From Planctomycetes bacterium ADurb.Bin069 (GTDB taxonomy: Bacteria > Planctomycetota > UBA8108 > UBA8890 > UBA8898), in assembly GCA_002070955.1 (NCBI GenBank), contig MWEK01000001.1:80103-144102 (forward strand): DNA of 64,000 nucleotides, read 5' to 3'. Each line of letters starts with the position of its first letter. Within the stretch, counting starts at the first letter, position 1. The notes under the pieces were generated by a model. That model did not search any database, was not told where the DNA came from, and saw only the letters and a program-made list of their open reading frames with translations. This document shows positions 7,998-51,600 of the stretch, one piece after another. A program made the translations under genes and the position numbers.

Positions 7998-8033
7998 GCG
8001 GTGCTCCTCGAGCTGCACCGGGGGCGCGCGGCG

Positions 8034-8053
8034 AAAAAACCCGGCGCCGCCGG
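8034..8053 (-). terminator. candidate intrinsic terminator after the zinc-ribbon gene
   Basis: The minus strand reads CCGGCG-G-CGCCGG followed by G and TTTTTT (plus-strand A6 at 8034-8039). It lies about 50 nt after the stop at 8103. Confidence 0.5.
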
Positions 8054-15848: not shown

Positions 15849-16718
15849 TCAGAGGATCACCTTATTCAAGGCGTACTCGATTATGTCGCGGGCGCCGGCG
15901 CGCTTCAGCTCCGGCACGAGATCGCGCACCTGGCGCTCCTTTAGCACCGTCTCCACCGCGTACCAGTCCTTTTCCCGCAGGCGGTTCACCGTGGGATCCT
16001 TCAAGGCGGGCAGCACCGCGAGCACCTTGGAAAGATCCGCGGCGTTCACGTTCATCTTCAACCCCACCATGCCCTGCGCCACGAGGGCGCCCTCGAGCAG
16101 CATGGCGAAGTTCTCGATCTTCCGGCGCTTGCCCGGATCCTTCAAGCTCTCCTTGCCGGCGATAAGCCGCGTGGTCGTTTCCAGGATCACGTCGATGATC
16201 CTGAGCTTGTTGGCGGCCAGCGAACGGCCGGTCTCGGTGATGTCGACGATCGCGTCGACGAGATCGGGCGCCTTCGCCTCCGTCGCGCCCCACGAAAACT
16301 CCACCTCGGCCTCGATGCGCCGCGCCGCCAGGTACCTCCGCGTGACGCCGACCAGCTCCGTCGCGATGCGCTTCCCTCGGAGATCCTCGACCGAACGGAT
16401 CGGCGAATCCTCGGGCACCGCGAGCACCCACTTGCACGCATTCATGCTCGCTTTGCTGTAGACCAGCTCCAGCACCTCCTCGACGTCGGCGCCCGTCTCC
16501 ACGACCCAATCGTGGCCCGTGATACCGATGTCGAAGACGCCCTGCACGACGTAGCGCGGGATCTCCTGGGCGCGCACCAGGCGCACCTGCAGCTCCTCGT
16601 CATCCACGGCCGGGGCGTAGGACCGCGGGCCGACGGTGAGGTTGAACCCCGCCTGGGCCAGCAACGCGAACGTCGCCTTCTCAAGGCTTCCCTTCGGAAG
16701 CGCCGCGCGAACCAGCAT
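15849..16718 (-). CDS. hisG: ATP phosphoribosyltransferase HisG (long form with regulatory domain)
   Basis: MLVRAALPKGSL...DIGITGHDW...DITETGRSL. ATG at 16718 is preceded by GGGAGG. Confidence 0.9.
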   Translation of the reverse strand: MLVRAALPKGSLEKATFALLAQAGFNLTVGPRSYAPAVDDEELQVRLVRAQEIPRYVVQGVFDIGITGHDWVVETGADVEEVLELVYSKASMNACKWVLAVPEDSPIRSVEDLRGKRIATELVGVTRRYLAARRIEAEVEFSWGATEAKAPDLVDAIVDITETGRSLAANKLRIIDVILETTTRLIAGKESLKDPGKRRKIENFAMLLEGALVAQGMVGLKMNVNAADLSKVLAVLPALKDPTVNRLREKDWYAVETVLKERQVRDLVPELKRAGARDIIEYALNKVIL

Positions 16719-40841: not shown

Positions 40842-42971
40842 CTACTCCTCGACGGCGCCGTCGGTCTCCTCCCCGGGAGAATCCGGCGGGAGCGCCTCCG
40901 GTTCGCCGGCATCCTCGTGAATCTCCGCCGGACCTCCCGCGGGCGATTCCTCGGGTTCCTCGGACGAGGCGCCCGCAGCGGCGGCCGCCGCCTTCTCGCT
41001 GACCGTCCACGTGAGACTGAACAGGTAGTACTTGTCTTCCTCGATCGCGACGCCCTCTCTGGCTCCCTGCGGCTCCCGCTTTTTCTTCTCTTGGTCCCGC
41101 AGGAACCTCGGATCGACGAGGAGCCAGTTCCGCGCGAATTGGCGGTCTTCCTCCGCCACGGGATCGGCGAGCGCCGTTTGATCCAACAGCTGGAGCCTCG
41201 GCGCCGACGTGATGTGCCCGGCGAGGGTACGATTCTTCTTCAGGGCCGCCGAAAGGGGCGCCACCACCACGGCATCCACGAAGCGACGGCTCTCGTCGGG
41301 AGTCTCGCGGGCCAGCACGGCGCCCGTCAGGGTGAAAACGTAGGCCAGCGGGGCCGGCGCGGACTTGGCCGCCTGGTCTTTGGCGGTGGTGGCAGCCCCG
41401 GTTCCCGGGCGCTCGGTTTCAACGCCCTTCAGCGACGCCTGGAGGGACAGCAACCAGGCCATCTCCTTGTGCACGGAAGCCATGCGCCTCAGGGCCTCGG
41501 CCTCGGCCTCGTTTTCGTCCTCCTGCTTGGCGATAAAGATCGTCCGCGCCCGCGGAGGCTCGGCGCCCAGCGGCGCGGTGACGCTGCCCGGCGTCTCGCT
41601 CCGGTAGGCGTTTTTCTCGATGGCGGCGAAGAGCTTGTTGACCTCGGCCAGGGATTGGGAGAAGTACGGGCGCTCCTGTCCGATCTGCGCGAGGGCCTCG
41701 ATCTTCGCCTTGAGCAGCGGAATGTCGCTCGTCTTCGCGAGCTGTTTGGCGGTGCCCTCGAGCTGCTTGACGATGTTGTCGCTCTTGTCGTTCGAGACGC
41801 GGGCGTTCTCGGCTTTCTTCGCGTAGGTCTGGCCGAGCACGACGAGCGCGCCGAGGAGGACGCCCCCGGCGATGAAAACCATCTTCCGCTTGCGGGTGAA
41901 CGCGAGCTGCACCCGCTGCTCGCGCGGCATGAGGTCGACGTTCGTGGCGGCCAGTCCCAGGCCCTGCAGCCCCGCGCCCAGCGCCGGCGCCAGCGACGAG
42001 ATTTGGGTCCTCAGCTCCGCCACATCGAGGCCATCCGCCGGCCGCATGCGGGCCAGCGCGGCCACGCGCTGCACCTTCCACCCGAGCCGCTCCTGGACGA
42101 CCTGGCCGAGCCCCAGCGTGAAGCTGCCCTGTCCAAGGAGGTACGCCGTTTCGAACTCGGTCGCGGCGATCTGGCGCCGGTAAAACGCCACCGACCGCTG
42201 CACCTCCGTGGTGAAGTCTCCGAGCACCTTCTGCAGCCCCGCGAAAATCTTGTCTTTCTGCGGGCTCTTGGCGGCCTGGCGCTTCACGCGCTCGGCCTCG
42301 GCGAAGGTCAGCCGGAAGCGCTGGCTCAGGTCGCGGGTGATCTGATTGCCGGAAAACGGGAGCGCACGGATCCAAAACGCGCCGTTGTCCACCAAGATCA
42401 GCGCGGTGTGCTCGGCGCCGACATCGAGGATCACGCTGGGCGCCTTCGGCCGCAACTCGTAAAGCACGAAATTGAGCAGCCCTAGGTCGCCGCAGATCAC
42501 CTGTTGGCCGCGGATCCCGTAACCGTCGAGTTCAAGCAAGAGATCGTCCACCGTCTCGCGCCGGGCGGCGAAGATGCCGACCTCCCGCTCCTGGCCGGCC
42601 GCGTAGTCGCGCGGCACGAGCTGCCAGTCCCAGACCACTTCCTGAATAGGGAAGGGGATCTGCTGCCGTGCTTCGAAGTTGACCAGTTCCTGGAGCTTCT
42701 TCTCATCGTCGGCGACGATCTTGATGAACCGCGGGAGAGTGTCCTGCCCCGGCAGGCAGACCACGAAGGGGTCGCGGGTCGAATTGCGGGAGGTGAAGAT
42801 CTGCAGGGCTTCCCGCGCGCCCCCGATGGAGTCGACGCCCTCCGGACCGATGTCGTATTCAATCCGCTCGGTCCCTTGGACAATCACTTGCATGCCGACG
42901 CGGCGCAAGTGAACCGCCTTGAGGGCGAACTTGCCGATATCGATGCTCCAGACCGCGCTGAAACCCGCCAT
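40842..42971 (-). CDS. pilM: PilM (actin-like ATPase fold) fused to a PilN-like TM segment and a large periplasmic extension
   Basis: ATG at 42971 follows GAGG. WSIDIGKFALKAV, ILDVGAEHTALILVDNG..IRALPFSGNQITRDL (PilM/FtsA-like). A TM segment near residue 400 (MVFIAGGVLLGALVVLGQ). About 300 further residues end in an acidic tail. Confidence 0.8.
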   Translation of the reverse strand: MAGFSAVWSIDIGKFALKAVHLRRVGMQVIVQGTERIEYDIGPEGVDSIGGAREALQIFTSRNSTRDPFVVCLPGQDTLPRFIKIVADDEKKLQELVNFEARQQIPFPIQEVVWDWQLVPRDYAAGQEREVGIFAARRETVDDLLLELDGYGIRGQQVICGDLGLLNFVLYELRPKAPSVILDVGAEHTALILVDNGAFWIRALPFSGNQITRDLSQRFRLTFAEAERVKRQAAKSPQKDKIFAGLQKVLGDFTTEVQRSVAFYRRQIAATEFETAYLLGQGSFTLGLGQVVQERLGWKVQRVAALARMRPADGLDVAELRTQISSLAPALGAGLQGLGLAATNVDLMPREQRVQLAFTRKRKMVFIAGGVLLGALVVLGQTYAKKAENARVSNDKSDNIVKQLEGTAKQLAKTSDIPLLKAKIEALAQIGQERPYFSQSLAEVNKLFAAIEKNAYRSETPGSVTAPLGAEPPRARTIFIAKQEDENEAEAEALRRMASVHKEMAWLLSLQASLKGVETERPGTGAATTAKDQAAKSAPAPLAYVFTLTGAVLARETPDESRRFVDAVVVAPLSAALKKNRTLAGHITSAPRLQLLDQTALADPVAEEDRQFARNWLLVDPRFLRDQEKKKREPQGAREGVAIEEDKYYLFSLTWTVSEKAAAAAAGASSEEPEESPAGGPAEIHEDAGEPEALPPDSPGEETDGAVEE

Positions 42972-43382: not shown

Positions 43383-44114
43383 TCAGCGCGGTCCGAGGAT
43401 CGCCATGGCAGCCTGCAGGTCCTCCCAGGCTTTCCCCTTCTCTTCCGGCTTTCGCAGGAGATAGCTGGGATGGAAGGTGGGAACAACTTTTGCCGTCCCG
43501 TAGGCGTGGATGCGGCCCCTTACCCCGCCGATCGTCACCGCGCTCCCGAGCAGCCACCGCGCCGCGTGCGCGCCGAGCGGCACGATCACCTCGGGAGCGA
43601 GCAACGCGAGCTGGCGCCGCAGGTAGTCTCCGCAGGCCGCGATCTCGTCGGGCTCCGGCGACCGGTTTCCGGGCGGCCGGCACTTGAGGACATTGGCAAT
43701 GAATACTTGTTCACGCGTAAAACCCATCGCGGCGATCATGCGCGTAAGCAGCGCGCCGGCGCGGCCGACGAAGGGACGCCCTTCCCGGTCCTCGTCCGCT
43801 CCGGGCGCCTCGCCCACAAAGACGATGCGGGGGGCGCGCGCGCCTTCCCCCGGCACCACGCGGGTTCGCGAGGCCGCCAACTTGCACCGCGTGCATGCGG
43901 CCGCTTCGCGGGCAATGGCTTCGAGGGAATCGGAAGGCGCCCCGTCCGCGGGCGCCGGATCGGCGCGCTTCTCGGACGCCGCCGGGGGAACTTGCAGTCT
44001 GACGCGGCACCACGACCTTCCCGCCGCGTCCTCGGCCCACAATCTGTCGAGCAATCTGCGCGTCGCCATGCCTTGCACCGAACCTCGGGGGAGCGGCCGC
44101 CGAGCGCGGCTCAT
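43383..44114 (-). CDS. udg: uracil-DNA glycosylase, family 4
   Basis: CTRCKL, VFVGEAPGADEDREGRPFVGRAG, HPSYLLR. The ATG at 44114 overlaps the mtaB stop (ATGA). Confidence 0.85.
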   Translation of the reverse strand: MSRARRPLPRGSVQGMATRRLLDRLWAEDAAGRSWCRVRLQVPPAASEKRADPAPADGAPSDSLEAIAREAAACTRCKLAASRTRVVPGEGARAPRIVFVGEAPGADEDREGRPFVGRAGALLTRMIAAMGFTREQVFIANVLKCRPPGNRSPEPDEIAACGDYLRRQLALLAPEVIVPLGAHAARWLLGSAVTIGGVRGRIHAYGTAKVVPTFHPSYLLRKPEEKGKAWEDLQAAMAILGPR

Positions 44115-45376
44115 GCCACGATTGCACCCCACAGAAACCCCTGACGCAAGTCCTCCACGCCTACGCGGACGATTGAGCCCGTCCGGACCGCGCCCGGAGC
44201 GAAACGCACGCGGACGTACTCCGCGGCCAGGCCTTCCGCGACCTCGCCCGCGCGCTCGACGACCACCGCGAGGATGCGCCCGACCAAAGCACCGGCTTGC
44301 GCGGCAAAAAGTTCGCGCTCGAGAGCGGCCAGGCGCGCGCACCGCGACGCCGTCTCCGCGGCGGAGGGACGCCCCGCAAAATCCGCCGCCGGGGTGCCGG
44401 GACGGGGGCTGAAAGGAAACACATGCATCTTCAGGAACCCGATTTCGCGGCACAACGCCGCCGTGGCGGCGAAGTCTTCTTCCTCCTCTCCCGGGAATCC
44501 GACGAGGATGTCGCCGGTGAACATCACTCCGGGAAGCGCTGCGCGGCACCGCGCAATGCGCGCGCGGATCTCGCCGAGCCCGCACCGCCGGCCCATGCGG
44601 CGTCGAATCCGCTCCGACCCGCTTTGGAGCGAGAGGTGGAAGTGGCGGCACAGGCCGGCGTGCCGCGCCGCCGCGGCTAGCAACGGCGCGTCCAGCGCGT
44701 CCATGCCGATCGAGCCCAGCCGCACCCGCGCCGAAACGCCGTCAAAAAGGGGGCCGATGCGATCCAGCAGGGCGGGGAGCCCGCCTTCCCACTCGTCCAG
44801 ATGTGTTCCGACGATCCAAATCTCGGCGACGCCGCCCGCGATCAGGGCGCGGCACTCCTCCGCGATTTCGTCCGCGGAACGGCTGCGCGACGGGCCGCGC
44901 AGGAGCGGCACGATGCAGTAAGTGCACCTGCGGCTGCAGCCGTCCTGAATCTTCACGTACGCGCGCGTCCTGGAACCGAAGGATCGGGGCGCGGCCCCGC
45001 CCGCGCACCCGGCGATGATCCGCGCCAGGCCGTCGCGCGCCGGCGGCGGCACCACCGCGCGCACTTGCGGCAACGCGAGGTACGCGGCCCGATCCCGCGC
45101 CGTCGCGCAACCCATGACGTACAGCCGCCGCCGCGGCGCCGCGCGGCAGAGGCGCCGGACGAGCCGGCGCGCCTTGCGGCTGCCCTTCTCCGTCACCGCG
45201 CACACATTGACGATCACATGGGGCGCGTCGCCGATCGCGACTTCCCGCCACCCGGCGCCGGCCAGCGCGCCGGCTAGCGCGCGGCTCTCGTACTGGTTGA
45301 CGCGGCAGCCGAGGGACTGCACGGCGAACGCCGGCGGATCGCCGTCCCGGGCACCGACCGCAGCATCCGCCGTCAT
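44111..45376 (-). CDS. mtaB: radical-SAM methylthiotransferase, MtaB-like (MiaB/RimO family)
   Basis: SLGCRVNQYES, GCSRRCTYCIVP (CxxxCxxC), and a TRAM-like C-terminus. Confidence 0.8.
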   Translation of the reverse strand: MTADAAVGARDGDPPAFAVQSLGCRVNQYESRALAGALAGAGWREVAIGDAPHVIVNVCAVTEKGSRKARRLVRRLCRAAPRRRLYVMGCATARDRAAYLALPQVRAVVPPPARDGLARIIAGCAGGAAPRSFGSRTRAYVKIQDGCSRRCTYCIVPLLRGPSRSRSADEIAEECRALIAGGVAEIWIVGTHLDEWEGGLPALLDRIGPLFDGVSARVRLGSIGMDALDAPLLAAAARHAGLCRHFHLSLQSGSERIRRRMGRRCGLGEIRARIARCRAALPGVMFTGDILVGFPGEEEEDFAATAALCREIGFLKMHVFPFSPRPGTPAADFAGRPSAAETASRCARLAALERELFAAQAGALVGRILAVVVERAGEVAEGLAAEYVRVRFAPGAVRTGSIVRVGVEDLRQGFLWGAIVA

Positions 45377-45380
45377 GCCG

Positions 45381-45758
45381 TCACGCCCGCGCGGCTACGG
45401 CCTCGATCTCGACAAGGGCGCCCTTGGGCAGCGCCGCCGCCTGCACGGTGCTGCGCGCGGGCCGCGCGCCGTCGAAAAACTCGGCGTACACCTCGTTCAG
45501 CGCGGCGAAGTCCGCCATGTCCGCCAGGAAGACGGTCGTCTTGACGACATCGCTCCGCGTCAGCCCGGCGCCCGCCAGCACCGCATCGATGTTCGCGAGG
45601 ACCTGAGCGGCCTGGGCGCGGATACCGCCGTCGCGCATCCGCCCCGTCGCGGGATCCAGCGCAATCTGACCCGACAGGAACACGAGAGCGCCCGTGTCGA
45701 CGGCCTGGCTGTAAGGGCCGATCGCCTTCGGGGCCTTGTCAGTCGCTATCTGACGCAT
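45381..45758 (-). CDS. ridA: RidA/YjgF-family reactive intermediate deaminase
   Basis: APKAIGPYSQAV...VKTTVFLADMADFAALNEVY...PARSTVQAAALPKGALVEIE. Confidence 0.9.
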   Translation of the reverse strand: MRQIATDKAPKAIGPYSQAVDTGALVFLSGQIALDPATGRMRDGGIRAQAAQVLANIDAVLAGAGLTRSDVVKTTVFLADMADFAALNEVYAEFFDGARPARSTVQAAALPKGALVEIEAVAARA

Positions 45759-45784
45759 GCCGGTTCTCCTTCACCTCGGCGTTC

Positions 45785-46330
45785 TCAGTCACGGCGCCCT
45801 GTTGCGCCTCTGCGTTCGCCGGCCCGCCGCAGCCGGCGTGTCACGAACGCGCGCAGGAGAGCGCGCGCTTCCTCGGGGACGAAGGCCTCGGCGGCCTGGA
45901 CGTCGCCCCCGGCGATCAAGGCTCGCACGAGTTTCGAGCTTGCCTGCGCGCCGGTTCCCGTTGTCAAGAAGAAGATCGTCGGAAGTCCGGCGCCCAACGC
46001 CTCGTTTCCCAATGCGAGATCCCGCTCCGCGGCGAGATCCTCGCAGGATCGGAGCCCTCGGACGATGGCCAGGGCGCCCTCGGCGCGGGCGAAGTCCGCC
46101 GTCAATCCGGTATACGAGGCCGCCCGCACGCGCCCGAGCGGCGCGGCGATGCGCTCCAACAGCCGCACGCGTTCCTTCGCCGTGAACATCGGCCGCTTGT
46201 CCGGATTCACCCCGACCGCCACGATCAGCTCGTCGAAGAGCGGCGCCGCCTTCGCGATGATTTCGCGGTGCCCGCACGTCGGCGGATCGAAGGTTCCGGG
46301 AAAAAGCGCTTTCCGGCGGCAGGTTCCCAT
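45785..46330 (-). CDS. coaD: phosphopantetheine adenylyltransferase
   Basis: ATG at 46330 follows GGAGG. ALFPGTFDPPTCGHREII, IVRGLR, SSKLVR. Confidence 0.9.
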   Translation of the reverse strand: MGTCRRKALFPGTFDPPTCGHREIIAKAAPLFDELIVAVGVNPDKRPMFTAKERVRLLERIAAPLGRVRAASYTGLTADFARAEGALAIVRGLRSCEDLAAERDLALGNEALGAGLPTIFFLTTGTGAQASSKLVRALIAGGDVQAAEAFVPEEARALLRAFVTRRLRRAGERRGATGRRD

Positions 46331-46492
46331 CGCCACCTCCCGAAGCGCGGCGTTCGCGCCGCGCCCGTAAGGAATTTTACCGGCATACCGTCCCGACGCC
46401 AGAGCCCGGGGCGCCGCCGGCAAGTCCGGACGCCCGCCCCGGCGCCGCGGCCCGCGCACCCGCGCTCACCGTCGAAGCTTCCCCCGCGCGGA

Positions 46493-46583
46493 GGTCCGCC
46501 CGCGCGCGGCGCGGAAAAAACAAACGATGTTATGCGCTCCGAGAATAGGACTGCGGTCCGCCCGCGCGCGGCGCGGAAAAAAC
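46493..46583 (+). repeat. two identical 29-nt direct repeats separated by 33 nt (CRISPR-like minimal unit or paired operator)
   Basis: GGTCCGCCCGCGCGCGGCGCGGAAAAAAC occurs at 46493-46521 and at 46555-46583. The flanks differ on both sides. Each copy has an internal 6-bp stem, CCGCGC/GCGCGG. Confidence 0.9.
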
Positions 46584-46784
46584 GCGAAACTTCCCCGTGC
46601 CCCGGCGGCGTCTATAATAGCCGCAGCCCGATACGTTCCAGGTTGTATACTTCTCTGGTAGCGACCCGAGGGCGCTTGTCGTACGGCGGTGTTTGCAGCC
46701 GCCCCGGGCGGCCCTGGAGTTGCGGGCCGCGCCCGCGCGAGCCCCTGCGAATAGTGTTCTTCCGGAAAGGAGCCGTTGCCATCC

Positions 46785-48560
46785 ATGCGCCGATTCGTGT
46801 TCGCACTTTCCGCCTTCGTGTTGGCCCTGTCCGCCTTCTTCTTCGTCGCTGCCCGGCACCGCTCGGCCTCCGGCGCCGAGCCCCCGCCTGAAGCCCCCGC
46901 GGCCGCCGCGGATGCGGCCGCCCGAACGGCGCCTCCCGCGGAACCCCGCATCGAGAACCTTGATGATCTCAAGCGGACGGTCGCGGAGATCCCGCCCGCG
47001 TTCGCCTGCCCCTCGACGGAGAGCGATCGTTTTCGCGCCTGCGACGCCATGCGCGTCAAGGCGCGCGGCGCTCACGCCGCGGCCGCGCGCCTCCTGGCGT
47101 CGGCGGCCGACTCCGTCCAGAAGGCCGAGCTGGAGGAGATCTCTAAAACCATCGCGCTCCGGCGCGAACCAATCGCCATCGCCTACTTGCGGGCGCTGTT
47201 GGAGGGAGTTCCCTCGGCGCTCCAGGACCTTTCCGCCGAGAAGATCGAGAACCTCAAACGCAACGTCGCCGTGGGCATCGAGGAGGGCGAACACTACATC
47301 GCGGCCTATCCCCAGTCCAAGGCCATCAGCGAGGCGCGCTTTTACCTGATGCGGCTTCTGTTCCTCAACGCCGAAGTCGCGGCGAAAAACTGGGCGGACG
47401 CCTTCGAGCTTGCGCGGGGCGCCGCGCCGACCTTGGCGGAGCGCGAGACGTTCCGCGAAAGCTACTTCGCGCGGATTTTCCACCTCATCGAAGCGATCGA
47501 GAAGGACGCGGCTCTGCCCGCGACCTTCAAGGAGCGCACCCTCAAGATCAAGGCCGATGCGTTTTCGTCCACCGGCAAGGCGGCGCAGGCCGCGGATCTG
47601 TACGTGGCGCACATCGCGGCGTGGCCGGGCTCCGACGACGTCAAGAGCGGCCTCTCTTATATGGCCGCGATTCAGCATTACCTCTACGCCGAGGTTCCCG
47701 AGAAGGCCGAGGCGCTCGGGCGCCGGGCCATAGCCGCTTGCGACAACACCAAGTTCTTTCCGCACATCGTCGACTTTTACTTCAAGGCGCTGACGGCCAC
47801 CGGCAAGCTCCAGGACGCCGAGACTCTGTGGCTCAAGTACATGCCGATCTTCACGCAACGCGCGGAGGATGCGAAACGCGCCGATTTCGAACGCGCCGGC
47901 TACCGCACCTATGCGGAATGGGCCCTCTTCAGGCTCGGGTACGTGACCTTCGCGCTGCTGCGTTACGAGCAGGCCAGGGATTACTTCAGGCAGCACTTGA
48001 ATTTCGTCAAGGACTACGGCAAGCCGCTGCCGCCGCCGCTCCAAGTCCACGCCCAGCGCAGCCAATACCTCTTGGAAGTCCTGCAGTCCAAGATCATGAA
48101 TCCGGCCCCCGAGCTGCCCGCCGGCAATTGCTGGGCGGGCGGCCGGGCGTTCTCCCTCGCGGAGAACCGCGGCAAGGTCATCGCCGTTATCTTCCGCACC
48201 TACAGCTCTCCCCGCGCCGAGCCCGTGCTTCACTACCTCCAGCAGCAGTACGAGAAGTACGGGCAGGAGGCGGGCCCCTTGGCTGTCGTCAGCATAGCTT
48301 TCCCGCGAGGGACGGACAACCTCCCCGAGCAGCTTGGCGCGCTCAAGAAAGAGATGGACGAACTCAACCTGACCTTCCCTTCGGGATTCGATCCTTCGCC
48401 CGATCGCGCGCTATTCACCAAGGACTACGACGTTAACGTGGGCAGCGCCACGCTGGTTTTTGTCGATCCCGAGGGCAGACTGGCTTACTACGAGCAGGAT
48501 CCCCGTCCCAATGCCTTCGGCCTTTTCACCCGGGTGATCGAGACGCTGCTCAAGGGATAG
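46785..48560 (+). CDS. secreted/anchored helical-repeat protein with C-terminal thioredoxin-fold (TlpA/redoxin-like) domain lacking CxxC
   Basis: ATG at 46785 (alternative TTG at 46776). N-terminal hydrophobic FVFALSAFVLALSAFFFVAA. C-terminal GKVIAVIFRTYSSPRAEP...LTFPSGFDP...ATLVFVDPEGRL aligns to the redoxin pattern, with SSPRA in place of WCxPC. Confidence 0.6.
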   Translation: MRRFVFALSAFVLALSAFFFVAARHRSASGAEPPPEAPAAAADAAARTAPPAEPRIENLDDLKRTVAEIPPAFACPSTESDRFRACDAMRVKARGAHAAAARLLASAADSVQKAELEEISKTIALRREPIAIAYLRALLEGVPSALQDLSAEKIENLKRNVAVGIEEGEHYIAAYPQSKAISEARFYLMRLLFLNAEVAAKNWADAFELARGAAPTLAERETFRESYFARIFHLIEAIEKDAALPATFKERTLKIKADAFSSTGKAAQAADLYVAHIAAWPGSDDVKSGLSYMAAIQHYLYAEVPEKAEALGRRAIAACDNTKFFPHIVDFYFKALTATGKLQDAETLWLKYMPIFTQRAEDAKRADFERAGYRTYAEWALFRLGYVTFALLRYEQARDYFRQHLNFVKDYGKPLPPPLQVHAQRSQYLLEVLQSKIMNPAPELPAGNCWAGGRAFSLAENRGKVIAVIFRTYSSPRAEPVLHYLQQQYEKYGQEAGPLAVVSIAFPRGTDNLPEQLGALKKEMDELNLTFPSGFDPSPDRALFTKDYDVNVGSATLVFVDPEGRLAYYEQDPRPNAFGLFTRVIETLLKG

Positions 48561-48609
48561 CGCCGGCTCTTTCACGACGCGGCGCGGCGGCGCGTTCCGG
48601 GGCGGGGAG

Positions 48610-51600
48610 CTAATCGGAGCCCCAACTCCTGAGCACGACCTCCTGGTCTCGGTCGGCGAGGATCACCGCGAGCGGCGCGCTCCTGATTCCTCGTCCGGCC
48701 AGCGCCTGCAGCGTGTACGCGCCGGGAACGAGCCCCTCGAAGCGGAAGCGCCCCTCGCCGTCCGTTCGCGCGCGCGCCTGCTTCTCGGGGCCGCTCAGCG
48801 CGACGACGGCCCCCGCGGCCCGCGCGCCGTCGGGCAACACAACGCTGCCCGAAAGCGCGAGCCCCTTGGCAAGCTGCAACGCCACGGGCTCGGGGGGGGC
48901 GTCCTCGCGGACCGCCAGCGCCGGAGAGCGCGCCGCCGCGTAGCCGTCGTGGTGCGCCTCGATCGTGTATTCTCCCGGCGCAATTCCGCGCAAGGTGAAG
49001 GCGCCGTCCTTGTCGGAGACCCCTTGGCCGGCGGCAAGAAAGTCGAAGCCCTCCGCGCCTCTGCGATGCTCGCGGCCCGAGCCGCGTTCCGCGCCCATTT
49101 CACGATCCGCGTCGCGCGCCGGCGCCGCGCGCACGCGCGCGCCCTCGACCGGGGCACCCGCGGGCGACCGCACCGTCCCCCGGACCTCGACGCCCGGCTC
49201 CAGCACGATATCGATGCCGGCGACACGCGCCCCTTCCCCGACCCGGAGCCCCCGCAGCACGAACTCCGGAAACGCCTCGGATTCGACTCGCAGATCGTAG
49301 ACGCCGGGCGCGACGGCCTCGAGGAGAAACGCGCCGTCGGCTGCATCGAACACACGGGGCGCCTGCGGCCGCGCACCCGCGTCGCGCCCGCCGGAGAGCG
49401 TCATCCGCACCGGCCGCACCGGCGCCCGTCCCGGAAGGCCGCGCACGAAGCCGCTGAGCTCGCCGGGCAAAACGAGCGTGCACACCAGCGCCTCGTTCGA
49501 AACCACCGCGGCCCGCTCTCGAAACGGCAGGTAACCCTCCGCGCGGACCTCGATGGCGCAGCCCGCGCCGGGGCTCAGCCCCCCCGCCTCGAACCTTCCT
49601 TCCTGATCGCTGAACACGCGCCGCCTGAGCCCGGCGCCTGCCACCGCGACGGCGGCACCCACGACCGGCTCGCCCCGCGCATTCACGAGCTTCCCGCGCA
49701 TCCGCGCCTCCGCCCGCAGCGCGATCGCTAGGTCCTTGACCTCCCCCGCGGCCAACGCTGCCTCGGCGCGATAGGGGGCATACGGCGCCTGATCGATCCA
49801 GACGAGGCAGCGTCCCGCCTCCAAGCCCCCGATGCGCCAGGCGCCTTCCCGGTCCGTCACCCGCTGCCGCGCGCGGCTCCCGTCCCGCGCGGCCGGGCCG
49901 CCATCTTCGCGCCACCCCTGGCGCGCCTGCACGCGGATTCCCGCCAGTTTTCCGCCGTCCGGACCCACCACCGTCCCCTTGAGCACCGCCCCGGGCATCA
50001 TGACGATGTCCAGAGACGGCCCGTCGCGCGCCGGATCGCCGACGGTGAAGGCCGCGCTGGCCGCGGGCAGGTAGTCCGGGTGCGTTGCGCGCACCCGCGC
50101 GGCGGCCGCCGCGCTTCGAAGCGGCAGTTCCCAGGCCCCGTCGGCCGCCGACAGCACCGCTCGCCGCCCGCCGAAGGCCGCTCCGCCCGCCTCGCGGTTC
50201 CCGGCAAGCGCCAAGCTCGCGCCGGCGATGGGCTCTCCGTCCGCGCCGCGCACCTTCCCCCGCACGACTCCGGCCTTGCCGAGCACCACGGTGACGGCGG
50301 CATGCTCGCCCGGGACCAACGTGATTCTTCGATCGCCGGGAAGGCGGCCGGCGGCCTCCGCACTTAGCACATAGGCGCCCTCGGGCAGGCCGGCGAAGGC
50401 GAGCCTGCCGCGATCATCGGCCCGCGCGCTTCGGGGTCTTACCGCCCCTGGAAATCCCTTGCTCTTTTCCGACGCCGCATCCCCCGGACGGAGACTCACG
50501 AACGCCTCCGCCAGGGGACCGCCTTCTCCCCGCACCTCGACCGCGAGCATGGCGCCCCGCGCCAGAACCAGCTCCAGCGGGGTCGTTCCCGGCGCAACCC
50601 GCCTCACAAGCGGCGCGAAACCGTCGCCGGCGACCTGGAGCGTATAGGTCTCGGGGTACAGCGTCGTCAGGCGGAAGAAGCCCCGGTCGTCGCTCGTCGT
50701 CTCGATGCGGGGCACAACGGCGCCGTCGCGGGGCTTGATTCGCGCCGTGAGCGTCACCGCGGCGCCCGCCACCGGCGTTCGATCCGGCCCCAGGATCTTT
50801 CCGGCGAGCGGCAGCCCGCGGGCCAACTCGAACCTCTCCGGCGCGCGCATTGCCGCGGCGACGCGCACGCCCGGAAACACGGCCGTGACGAAATCCTCCC
50901 GGCCGACGATGGCGGTGTACGTGCCCTCGCGGAGATTCTCGATGGCGAAGGCGCCGCGCGCGTCAGTCTCTCCGCCCCAGCGCGTTGCAAAACGCTCCGG
51001 ACGCTGGTAAACCGCCAGGGACGATCGCAGCGCATCGCGCGCATCCTCGAAGGCGAGCGTGATCTCGGCGCCCGCCAGGCGCGCGCCCTTCTCGTCGGTC
51101 ACCTCGCCGTGCAGCACGGCGCCCGGCGGCAGCGTGAGGAGGAGGTCGTCGCAGGGAGCCTCGACGTCGAAGGCCGCGGCGCGGGCGTGCCCCTCCTTGA
51201 CGGCGACCAGGTCGTAGAACGCCGGCGCCGCGGCGGAGAAGGCGAACCTGCCGTCCGCTCCCGTCAACACGTCCTCGGGCGCCGCCGCGAGGGCGACCCG
51301 CAAGGCTTCGTCCGGCGGCGCGGCGGCGCCGGGAGCGCCTTCGACCCCCCCCGAGCCCCGGGCCCTTACGGCGGCGTTCGCCACGGCGAATCCGCGGGCA
51401 TCGACGACGCGGCCCGCGAGCTTCGCTCCGGGCGCCAGGGTGAGCACCGTGTCCACGGCGGCGTTCTCGGCGACGGCCAACACCGGACCGAGCCCCGGCG
51501 CATACGCGCCGCCGAACGCCGCCAGACGGCACGCCTCGCCTTCCACACCGTGAAAGGTGAAGCGCCCGTTGCGCTCCGTTGCGGTGCGCGCCCGGCTCCC

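Follow-up and report, generated by a model that had tools for sequence, protein, structure and literature searches.

What is a perfect direct repeat of 29 nucleotides, wrapped around an unrelated fragment of 33 nucleotides, doing between two divergent genes of a planctomycete: is it a minimal CRISPR array, a pair of regulatory sites, or something else? The unit in question lies at positions 46493 to 46583 of the window (the whole 64-kb stretch of DNA that was analyzed), within a MAG of 4.55 Mb (G000; 156 contigs, 69.3% GC, 88.5% complete). The reading that we favor, with a probability of about 0.78, is that it is the footprint of a single off-target ("ectopic" or neo-CRISPR) spacer integration by a type I-E-like Cas1-Cas2.

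Two copies of a 29-mer around a foreign-looking insert

The 29-mer GGTCCGCCCGCGCGCGGCGCGGAAAAAAC is present in two exact copies on the plus strand, at 46493 to 46521 (copy 1, a "pseudo-repeat" with a 28-nucleotide core at 46494 to 46521 that reads GTTTTTTCCGCGCCGCGCGCGGGCGGAC on the minus strand) and at 46555 to 46583 (copy 2). Between them, at 46522 to 46554, lies a spacer-sized insert of 33 nucleotides, AAACGATGTTATGCGCTCCGAGAATAGGACTGC, which gives the unit a period of 62; if the duplication is counted as 28 nucleotides, the insert becomes 34 nucleotides long, so that the unit can be read as either 28 + 34 or 29 + 33. A preliminary description of this locus had reported the same two repeats and the same spacer, had recognized their dimensions and internal layout as those of a type I-E repeat-spacer unit and had considered the insert to look foreign. 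All three observations hold, the last on the basis of a GC content of 48% in the insert versus 69.3% in the genome.

No third copy with up to three mismatches was found in the 64-kb window (0 of 100 shuffles gave a match), and the genome-wide search that had been proposed earlier returned, at the same tolerance, two matches in 4.55 Mb, both of them at 46493 to 46583. This result disposes of a REP-type element, for which many dispersed copies would be expected. The 28-nucleotide core had no exact match in a genome collection covering 185,579 species, nor in viral contigs. A related core previously placed at 8023 to 8040 of the window does exist (8024 to 8040) but amounts to a GC-rich run followed by an A-tract. 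Two further readings of the unit were rejected: a tandem duplication of a 62-bp unit is ruled out because the sequence past copy 2 is unrelated to the insert, and for a terminator composed of the hairpin and the A-run, the T-run is on the wrong side on both strands. The sole terminator-like call is weak and of a kind found at chance frequency.

Genes and promoters flanking the unit

On one side of the unit, and divergent from the gene on the other, lies the coaD-like cytidylyltransferase gene (45785 to 46333, minus strand; PF01467) that had already been recognized as a neighbor. The downstream gene (46785 to 48560, plus strand) encodes an exported protein of 591 amino acids with a C-terminal redoxin-like domain. 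It had been labeled TPR/redoxin-like, of which the redoxin part is retained on a weak C-terminal match (PF08534, below the curated cutoff) and the TPR part is dropped, no such family having appeared in the Pfam scan. The signal-peptide region of the same gene contains a 21-nucleotide tandem duplication (46794 to 46835; 86% identical), with the translations FVFALSA and FVLALSA.

A candidate promoter of the redoxin-domain gene, GAAACTT ... CTATAAT(A), was placed at 46586 to 46618 (plus strand) by aligning G000 with G001 and G002, two species of the same genus, and is kept in all three species; a simple sigma-70 scan misses it because of its poor -35 region. Its TATAAT box (46613 to 46618) follows the end of copy 2 by 29 nucleotides, in agreement with the preliminary description. 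Toward coaD, a conserved TAAAAT on the minus strand (46379 to 46374) is likely the -10 box of that gene, and the comparison with G001 and G002 shows the conserved GAATTTTACCGG block. Outside the insertion, at 46619 to 46784 on the plus strand, sister alignment and folding prediction delineate a conserved structured 5' leader of the redoxin-domain gene, which is strongly conserved in the three species and contains GGTTGTATACTTCTC..GACCCGAGG, followed by a long GC-rich stem and by GGAAAGGAGCC ahead of the start codon. Conserved hairpins are predicted in this leader, and it may be a regulatory leader RNA. A search of positions 44000 to 49000 against Rfam gave no family except a subthreshold match to RsmW at 45785 to 45889, on the opposite strand of the 3' part of coaD (25.6 bits versus a gathering threshold of 52; E = 0.25), which is almost certainly a chance match.

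A single, insert-free site in two sister species

The region between coaD and the redoxin-domain gene is present in both G001 and G002, and alignment shows that the window and the two sister species have in common the TAAAAT (minus strand) next to coaD, a GAAACTT-N-CTATAATA block and the strongly conserved leader. Upstream of GAAACTT, each sister species has a single GC-rich stretch followed by an A-rich tract, and neither a second copy nor the 33-nucleotide filler is present in the aligned orthologous sites. Since the sister sites are single copy and insert free, the "repeat" is native promoter-upstream DNA; copy 2 has kept its native place ahead of the conserved promoter, with an A-tract that is the counterpart of the A-rich tract in the sister species. 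The alignment thus points to a duplication in the lineage of the window that was simultaneous with the insertion of an unrelated 33-nucleotide piece. Because the native promoter spacing is preserved at copy 2, the insertion was tolerated. A single insert-free site in both relatives also means that there is neither a conserved two-site operator nor a decayed ancestral array at this locus, and the earlier suggestion of direct-repeat operator sites fails at this point, one site only being found in the orthologous promoters.

Eight scattered units with one geometry

The genome was scanned for exact direct repeats spaced 40 to 100 nucleotides apart, then with one mismatch allowed and then with a looser scan. 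Apart from coding tandem repeats, whose periods are nearly all multiples of three, the scan yielded isolated exact repeats of 28 to 29 nucleotides with a period of 61 at C1:305549, C2:174235, C20:42694, C27:15630, and C50:1262 (contig:position). Allowing one mismatch added C20:42614, again with a period of 61, so that seven units have repeats identical at 27 to 28 of 28 nucleotides, six of them with a period of 61 and one, that of the window, with a period of 62. An eighth unit, C9:16295 (16295 to 16383), emerged from the looser scan, with repeats identical at 22 of 28 nucleotides, a period of 61, and an insert of 48% GC. The repeat sequence differs in every one of the eight units, the common property being the geometry of about 28 duplicated and about 33 inserted nucleotides. 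Among spacings of 40 to 100 nucleotides that are not multiples of three, no other spacing has more than one isolated match.

A concatenated query of the other loci was compared with G001 to G003 by BLAST, followed by explicit alignments. The paired BLAST pieces either overlap by 28 to 35 nucleotides on the sister genome or leave a gap of the length expected without the insert. A single copy without insert was found in G001 or G002 for seven of the eight units (the present locus, C1:305549, C2:174235, both C20 events, C50:1262, and C9:16295); C27, which has no usable orthologue, was left out of this count. Each unit is therefore an insertion of 61 to 62 bp composed of about 33 nucleotides of new DNA and a target duplication of about 28 nucleotides.

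The positions of the units relative to genes vary widely. Like the unit in the window, which sits between divergent promoters, C27:15630 is intergenic, as is C9:16295-16383, just upstream of a gene start (with the empty site in G001); C1:305549 begins 4 nucleotides past a stop codon, and C50:1262 replaces the final three codons of a gene. The C2 unit (174235 to 174323) lies inside a gene, the frame of which is split by the 61-bp scar; when the 61 bp are removed, the frame encodes an intact TAT-signal xylose-isomerase-like TIM-barrel protein that covers positions 1 to 248 of the 249 of the PF01261 profile. Gene disruption is behavior to be expected from a mutational scar, not from an element, and the variety of positions likewise leads us to regard the units as random scars filtered by selection rather than as a functional element. 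The remaining pair, C20:42614 and C20:42694 (together spanning 42614 to 42782), represents two independent integrations, separated by 80 bp, into the same divergent intergenic region, which may be a local hot spot. The second copy of C20:42614 overlaps the first copy of the C20:42694 unit by 9 nucleotides, making these nested scars.

The DNA that flanks the units differs by 11 to 29% from that of the sister species, and against this background, the perfect or nearly perfect repeats of seven units imply that these seven events are recent. The C9 unit is much older, yet later than the split from G001. The difference in age shows that the integrase was active at widely different times in the lineage.

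Resemblance of the duplicated sites to type I-E repeats

Type I-E Cas1 (TIGR03638) was found in 15 of 401 genomes of the phylum, and the arrays adjoining these cas1 genes have a period of 61 and repeats such as GTCGTCCCCACGCACGTGGGGGTGAACC. The seven duplicated 28-mers were subjected to a de novo motif test in which orientation and an ambiguity of ±1 were optimized, the same freedom being given to 150 GC-matched random sets. They share 15.3 bits of positional information, versus 9.8 ± 0.7 bits (maximum, 12.4) for the random sets. Their consensus, GGACGCGCCGCGCGCGCGGGGCCAGGAC (in short form, G....CCGCGCGCGCGGGG....), agrees in register with the E. coli repeat, GTGTTCCCCGCGCCAGCGGGGATAAACC, at G1, C8 to C13, G16 to G21, A24, and C28.

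A type I-E profile was built from the E. coli repeat and nine Planctomycetota I-E repeats, which serve as proxies for the cognate repeat of the lineage itself. Scored in register against this profile, six of the seven duplicated 28-mers fall in the top 0.11 to 2.0% of GC-matched genomic 28-mers (the one in the window in the top 0.24%), and the seventh falls at 16%. Among about 50 registers and orientations, the true borders of the duplication rank first in three of seven cases and second or third in another three. The unit in the window scores better in its minus-strand orientation (GTTTTTTCCGCGCCGCGCGCGGGCGGAC). A first base derived from the PAM was also considered and was rejected, as it was not consistent after the sites had been oriented.

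Searches for insert sources, cas genes, and arrays

The spacers of the seven young units have no second copy in their own genome, a lack of recurrence that led us to reject self-derived spacers, and none of the seven matched phage or plasmid collections. A search of five of the spacers against viral contigs was negative as well. The database comparison that had been called for in the preliminary description, on the expectation of a foreign source, thus left AAACGATGTTATGCGCTCCGAGAATAGGACTGC unmatched in phages, plasmids, and viral contigs, and its only match in metagenomes is the same locus in ERZ1026814. With no protospacer for any spacer, no PAM can be read. Two of the spacers share the 10-mer GTATCGCGCA; a common source was dismissed as not significant, since 180 of 1,000 shuffles also gave a shared 10-mer.

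Cas1 (PF01867) was found in 3 of 41 genomes (G000 and 40 relatives) and in neither G000, at 88.5% completeness, nor G001 to G003; type I-E Cas1 (TIGR03638) was found in none of 59 genomes of the class. A search of G000 to G003 for Cas7e (PF09344) was negative, a weak result in that the E. coli control gave no PF09344 match either, and for Cas3, the same four genomes gave only subthreshold helicase noise, with nothing above the cutoff. No Cas6e-type or Cascade gene was detected. The MAGs in which cas genes were sought are 74 to 89% complete. The earlier statement that the window contains no cas gene can therefore be widened to the genome as far as Cas1, Cas7e, and Cas3 are concerned, and a Cas1-Cas2 of the matching subtype, which belongs to the definition of an ectopic integration product, was not found in G000 to G003.

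The genome contains no canonical CRISPR array. Such an array would have repeats of a recurring family next to a leader and cas genes, whereas the unit has two copies only, consisting of native promoter-upstream DNA, and no cas genes. The preliminary description had itself named an absence of further copies and of cas genes among the findings that would speak against its array reading, and neither was found. While the array reading is thereby refuted, an origin from the CRISPR machinery is supported. Remnants of canonical arrays at contig ends were also considered and rejected, because the sequences shared by those ends are termini of an insertion sequence and not repeats. At least 13 contig ends (e.g., C1 right, C50 left, and C4 right) break at this multicopy insertion sequence, both termini of which begin with GAGGCGGTTGCGCTGT, one being found on seven ends and the other on six.

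Integration activity over a long span without a visible cas gene is the one real puzzle in these data, and the age of the C9 unit makes a total absence of cas genes harder to ascribe to chance. A cas island may lie in the unbinned part of the genome or on a mobile element, or it may have been lost recently; that another enzyme carried out the integrations is less likely.

Identical units in independent assemblies

Two of the units, those in the window and on C2, were compared across other public assemblies. The unit in the window is identical in ERZ1026814, ERZ1026800, and JGI 3300010365. In the first, it lies on a 1.7-kb SPAdes contig that is 100% identical to the window over 1,323 bp and bounded on both sides by library adapters. 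For the exact coaD protein, the public collection has 336 blocks on record, and the matches listed include an ENA contig of 205 kb (ERZ1026800) and a JGI contig of 369 kb (3300010365), both with the identical repeat-spacer-repeat unit. Similarly, the C2 unit recurs without any difference in ERZ27249271, a MEGAHIT contig of 538 kb, and in the NCBI MAG GCA_035414085.1, with the gene broken in both. The presence of identical units in independent assemblies in effect excludes an assembler artifact; the scars are fixed in this strain, which is widespread. A side observation concerns the ERZ1026814 contig (NODE_26641), in which the 1.3-kb genomic insert lies between stretches of untrimmed Nextera-type adapter and junk (121 to 186 and 1510 to 1575), a case of adapter contamination in a deposited assembly.

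Proposed ectopic spacer integration and its alternatives

In type I-E adaptation, a 33-bp prespacer is joined at both borders of a 28-bp repeat, on both strands, and repair duplicates the repeat. By analogy, a foreign, spacer-sized fragment of about 33 bp would have been joined to both strands of a repeat-like native intergenic stretch of 28 to 29 bp, the two strand attacks being staggered by one repeat length, and gap repair would then have duplicated the target stretch into the repeat-spacer-repeat arrangement. We base this reading on the observed geometry, the polarity of the insertion relative to the sister species, the recurrence at eight sites, the likeness to I-E repeats, and the reality of the DNA. 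The period of 62 instead of 61 in the window counts against integration of the I-E type. The identity of the enzyme is what we infer from these observations; not being encoded in the available bin, it may have been lost, may lie in the unbinned 11.5%, or may be carried by a mobile element. Neither Cas6e nor Cascade could be detected, and both flanking promoters have the unit on their upstream side; the unit is thus most likely an inert scar rather than a working guide-RNA gene.

Read as ectopic spacer integration, the unit adds a natural case to a process that is already known. To our knowledge, off-target spacer integration has been shown mainly with overexpressed E. coli Cas1-Cas2, and there are few clean examples from nature. 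In vitro, off-target integration by the Cas1-Cas2 of Pyrococcus furiosus occurs as paired attacks one repeat length apart, at sites that share positionally conserved bases with the repeat, and such integrations may seed new CRISPR loci (PMC6698737). The units described here resemble these sites in their repeat-length pairing and, by the motif and profile tests, in their positionally conserved bases, although the P. furiosus system is of another subtype, its repeat is 30 bp long, and the work was done on plasmid DNA. Also comparable is the noncanonical integration by Cas1-Cas2 in E. coli (Nivala et al. 2018, Nat Microbiol 3:310, as cited in PMC7054753 and PMC11788318). As far as the work of Nivala, Shipman, and Church is summarized in those citing articles, the type I-E neo-CRISPR loci of E. 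coli likewise consist of a spacer-length insert and a repeat-length duplication of ordinary genomic DNA outside arrays, with the same geometry of 28 + 33 = 61; however, the same summaries concern laboratory events under overexpressed Cas1-Cas2, whereas the eight events described here are natural, fixed, and of different ages, and they occurred in a wild Planctomycetota lineage without detectable cas genes. The canonical Planctomycetota I-E arrays, found beside TIGR03638 cas1 (loci L038 to L047), also have the 61-nucleotide period found here, with repeats of 28 to 29 nucleotides and spacers of 32 to 33 nucleotides, and their repeats have a CCCC[A/G]C...G[T/C]GGGG core. In contrast to the single spacer, unique native repeat, and missing cas operon of the present unit, they comprise many units of one repeat family with cas genes adjoining.

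The strongest competitor to type I-E-like Cas1-Cas2 is the same insertion-duplication chemistry performed by a non-I-E enzyme or by a trans-acting, mobile adaptation module that was never chromosomal, in which case the absence of cas genes would be genuine. Cas1, Cas7e, and Cas3 are indeed absent from the genome, the genus, and the family, the class has no I-E Cas1, and the events span different ages. However, type I-E adaptation is the only process known to us in which a stagger of 28 bp goes together with an insert of 33 bp, and genuine I-E repeats are matched in register by the target sites. Moreover, all of the MAGs are incomplete (74 to 89%), and cas and CRISPR islands often go missing in binning. 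We consider this explanation unlikely. At the other extreme, an artifact of assembly or library construction is a negligible concern: contig ends in the MAG do overlap by about 75 nucleotides, as in de Bruijn-graph assembly, but identical units are present in at least four other assemblies from different pipelines and samples, one unit has a mismatch within the repeat and still keeps its period of 61, and an assembler would not pick sites resembling I-E repeats.

Two functional readings fall between these, and both are very improbable in our judgment. The perfect repeats with their hairpin and A-rich tail and the foreign-looking spacer would suit a minimal or orphan CRISPR array that is transcribed and processed to crRNA for an effector encoded elsewhere. 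Against this stand the lack of a detected Cas6e-type or Cascade gene, the location upstream of both candidate promoters, the seven sister units with unrelated repeats (one of them within a gene), and the fact that the repeat is native DNA, single copy in the sister species, that belongs to no repeat family. A regulatory duplication (a pair of direct-repeat operators or a doubled UP element), favored by selection because it controls the divergent promoters, would likewise explain why the unit sits between divergent genes, why copy 2 ends 29 nucleotides before a conserved TATAAT, and why its A-tract aligns with the A-rich tract of the sister species. Yet a single site, without an insert, is present in the orthologous promoters of G001 and G002; the 28 + 33 geometry is seen again at seven other loci unrelated to this one, among them a coding sequence and the 3' end of a gene; and identity at 29 of 29 positions around an unrelated filler of 33 nucleotides is unlike the evolution of operators.

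Implications

The number of events (eight), the clean empty-site controls (for seven of eight), and the lack of any detectable cas gene are what make this case noteworthy. For annotation, it follows that two-repeat "CRISPR" calls of this sort belong neither under arrays nor under regulatory repeats. Past CRISPR activity can be detected, even where no cas genes remain, by a simple scan of the whole genome for a duplication of repeat length plus an insert of spacer length, at a fixed period, and the site preference of the integrase can be read from natural scars. One of the eight scars is a gene knockout, and two are nested at one site; CRISPR adaptation has a measurable mutational cost in the wild. 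We speculate, while regarding it as doubtful on balance, that the eight scars are the fossil record of an adaptation module that was lost or never chromosomal (e.g., a plasmid- or phage-borne type I-E Cas1-Cas2) or, more boldly, of an unrecognized integrase with I-E-like rulers in this class. If an adaptation module of this kind did leave the scars, ectopic spacers would reveal past or transient CRISPR activity in genomes without cas genes and would expose the starting material from which new arrays could arise.
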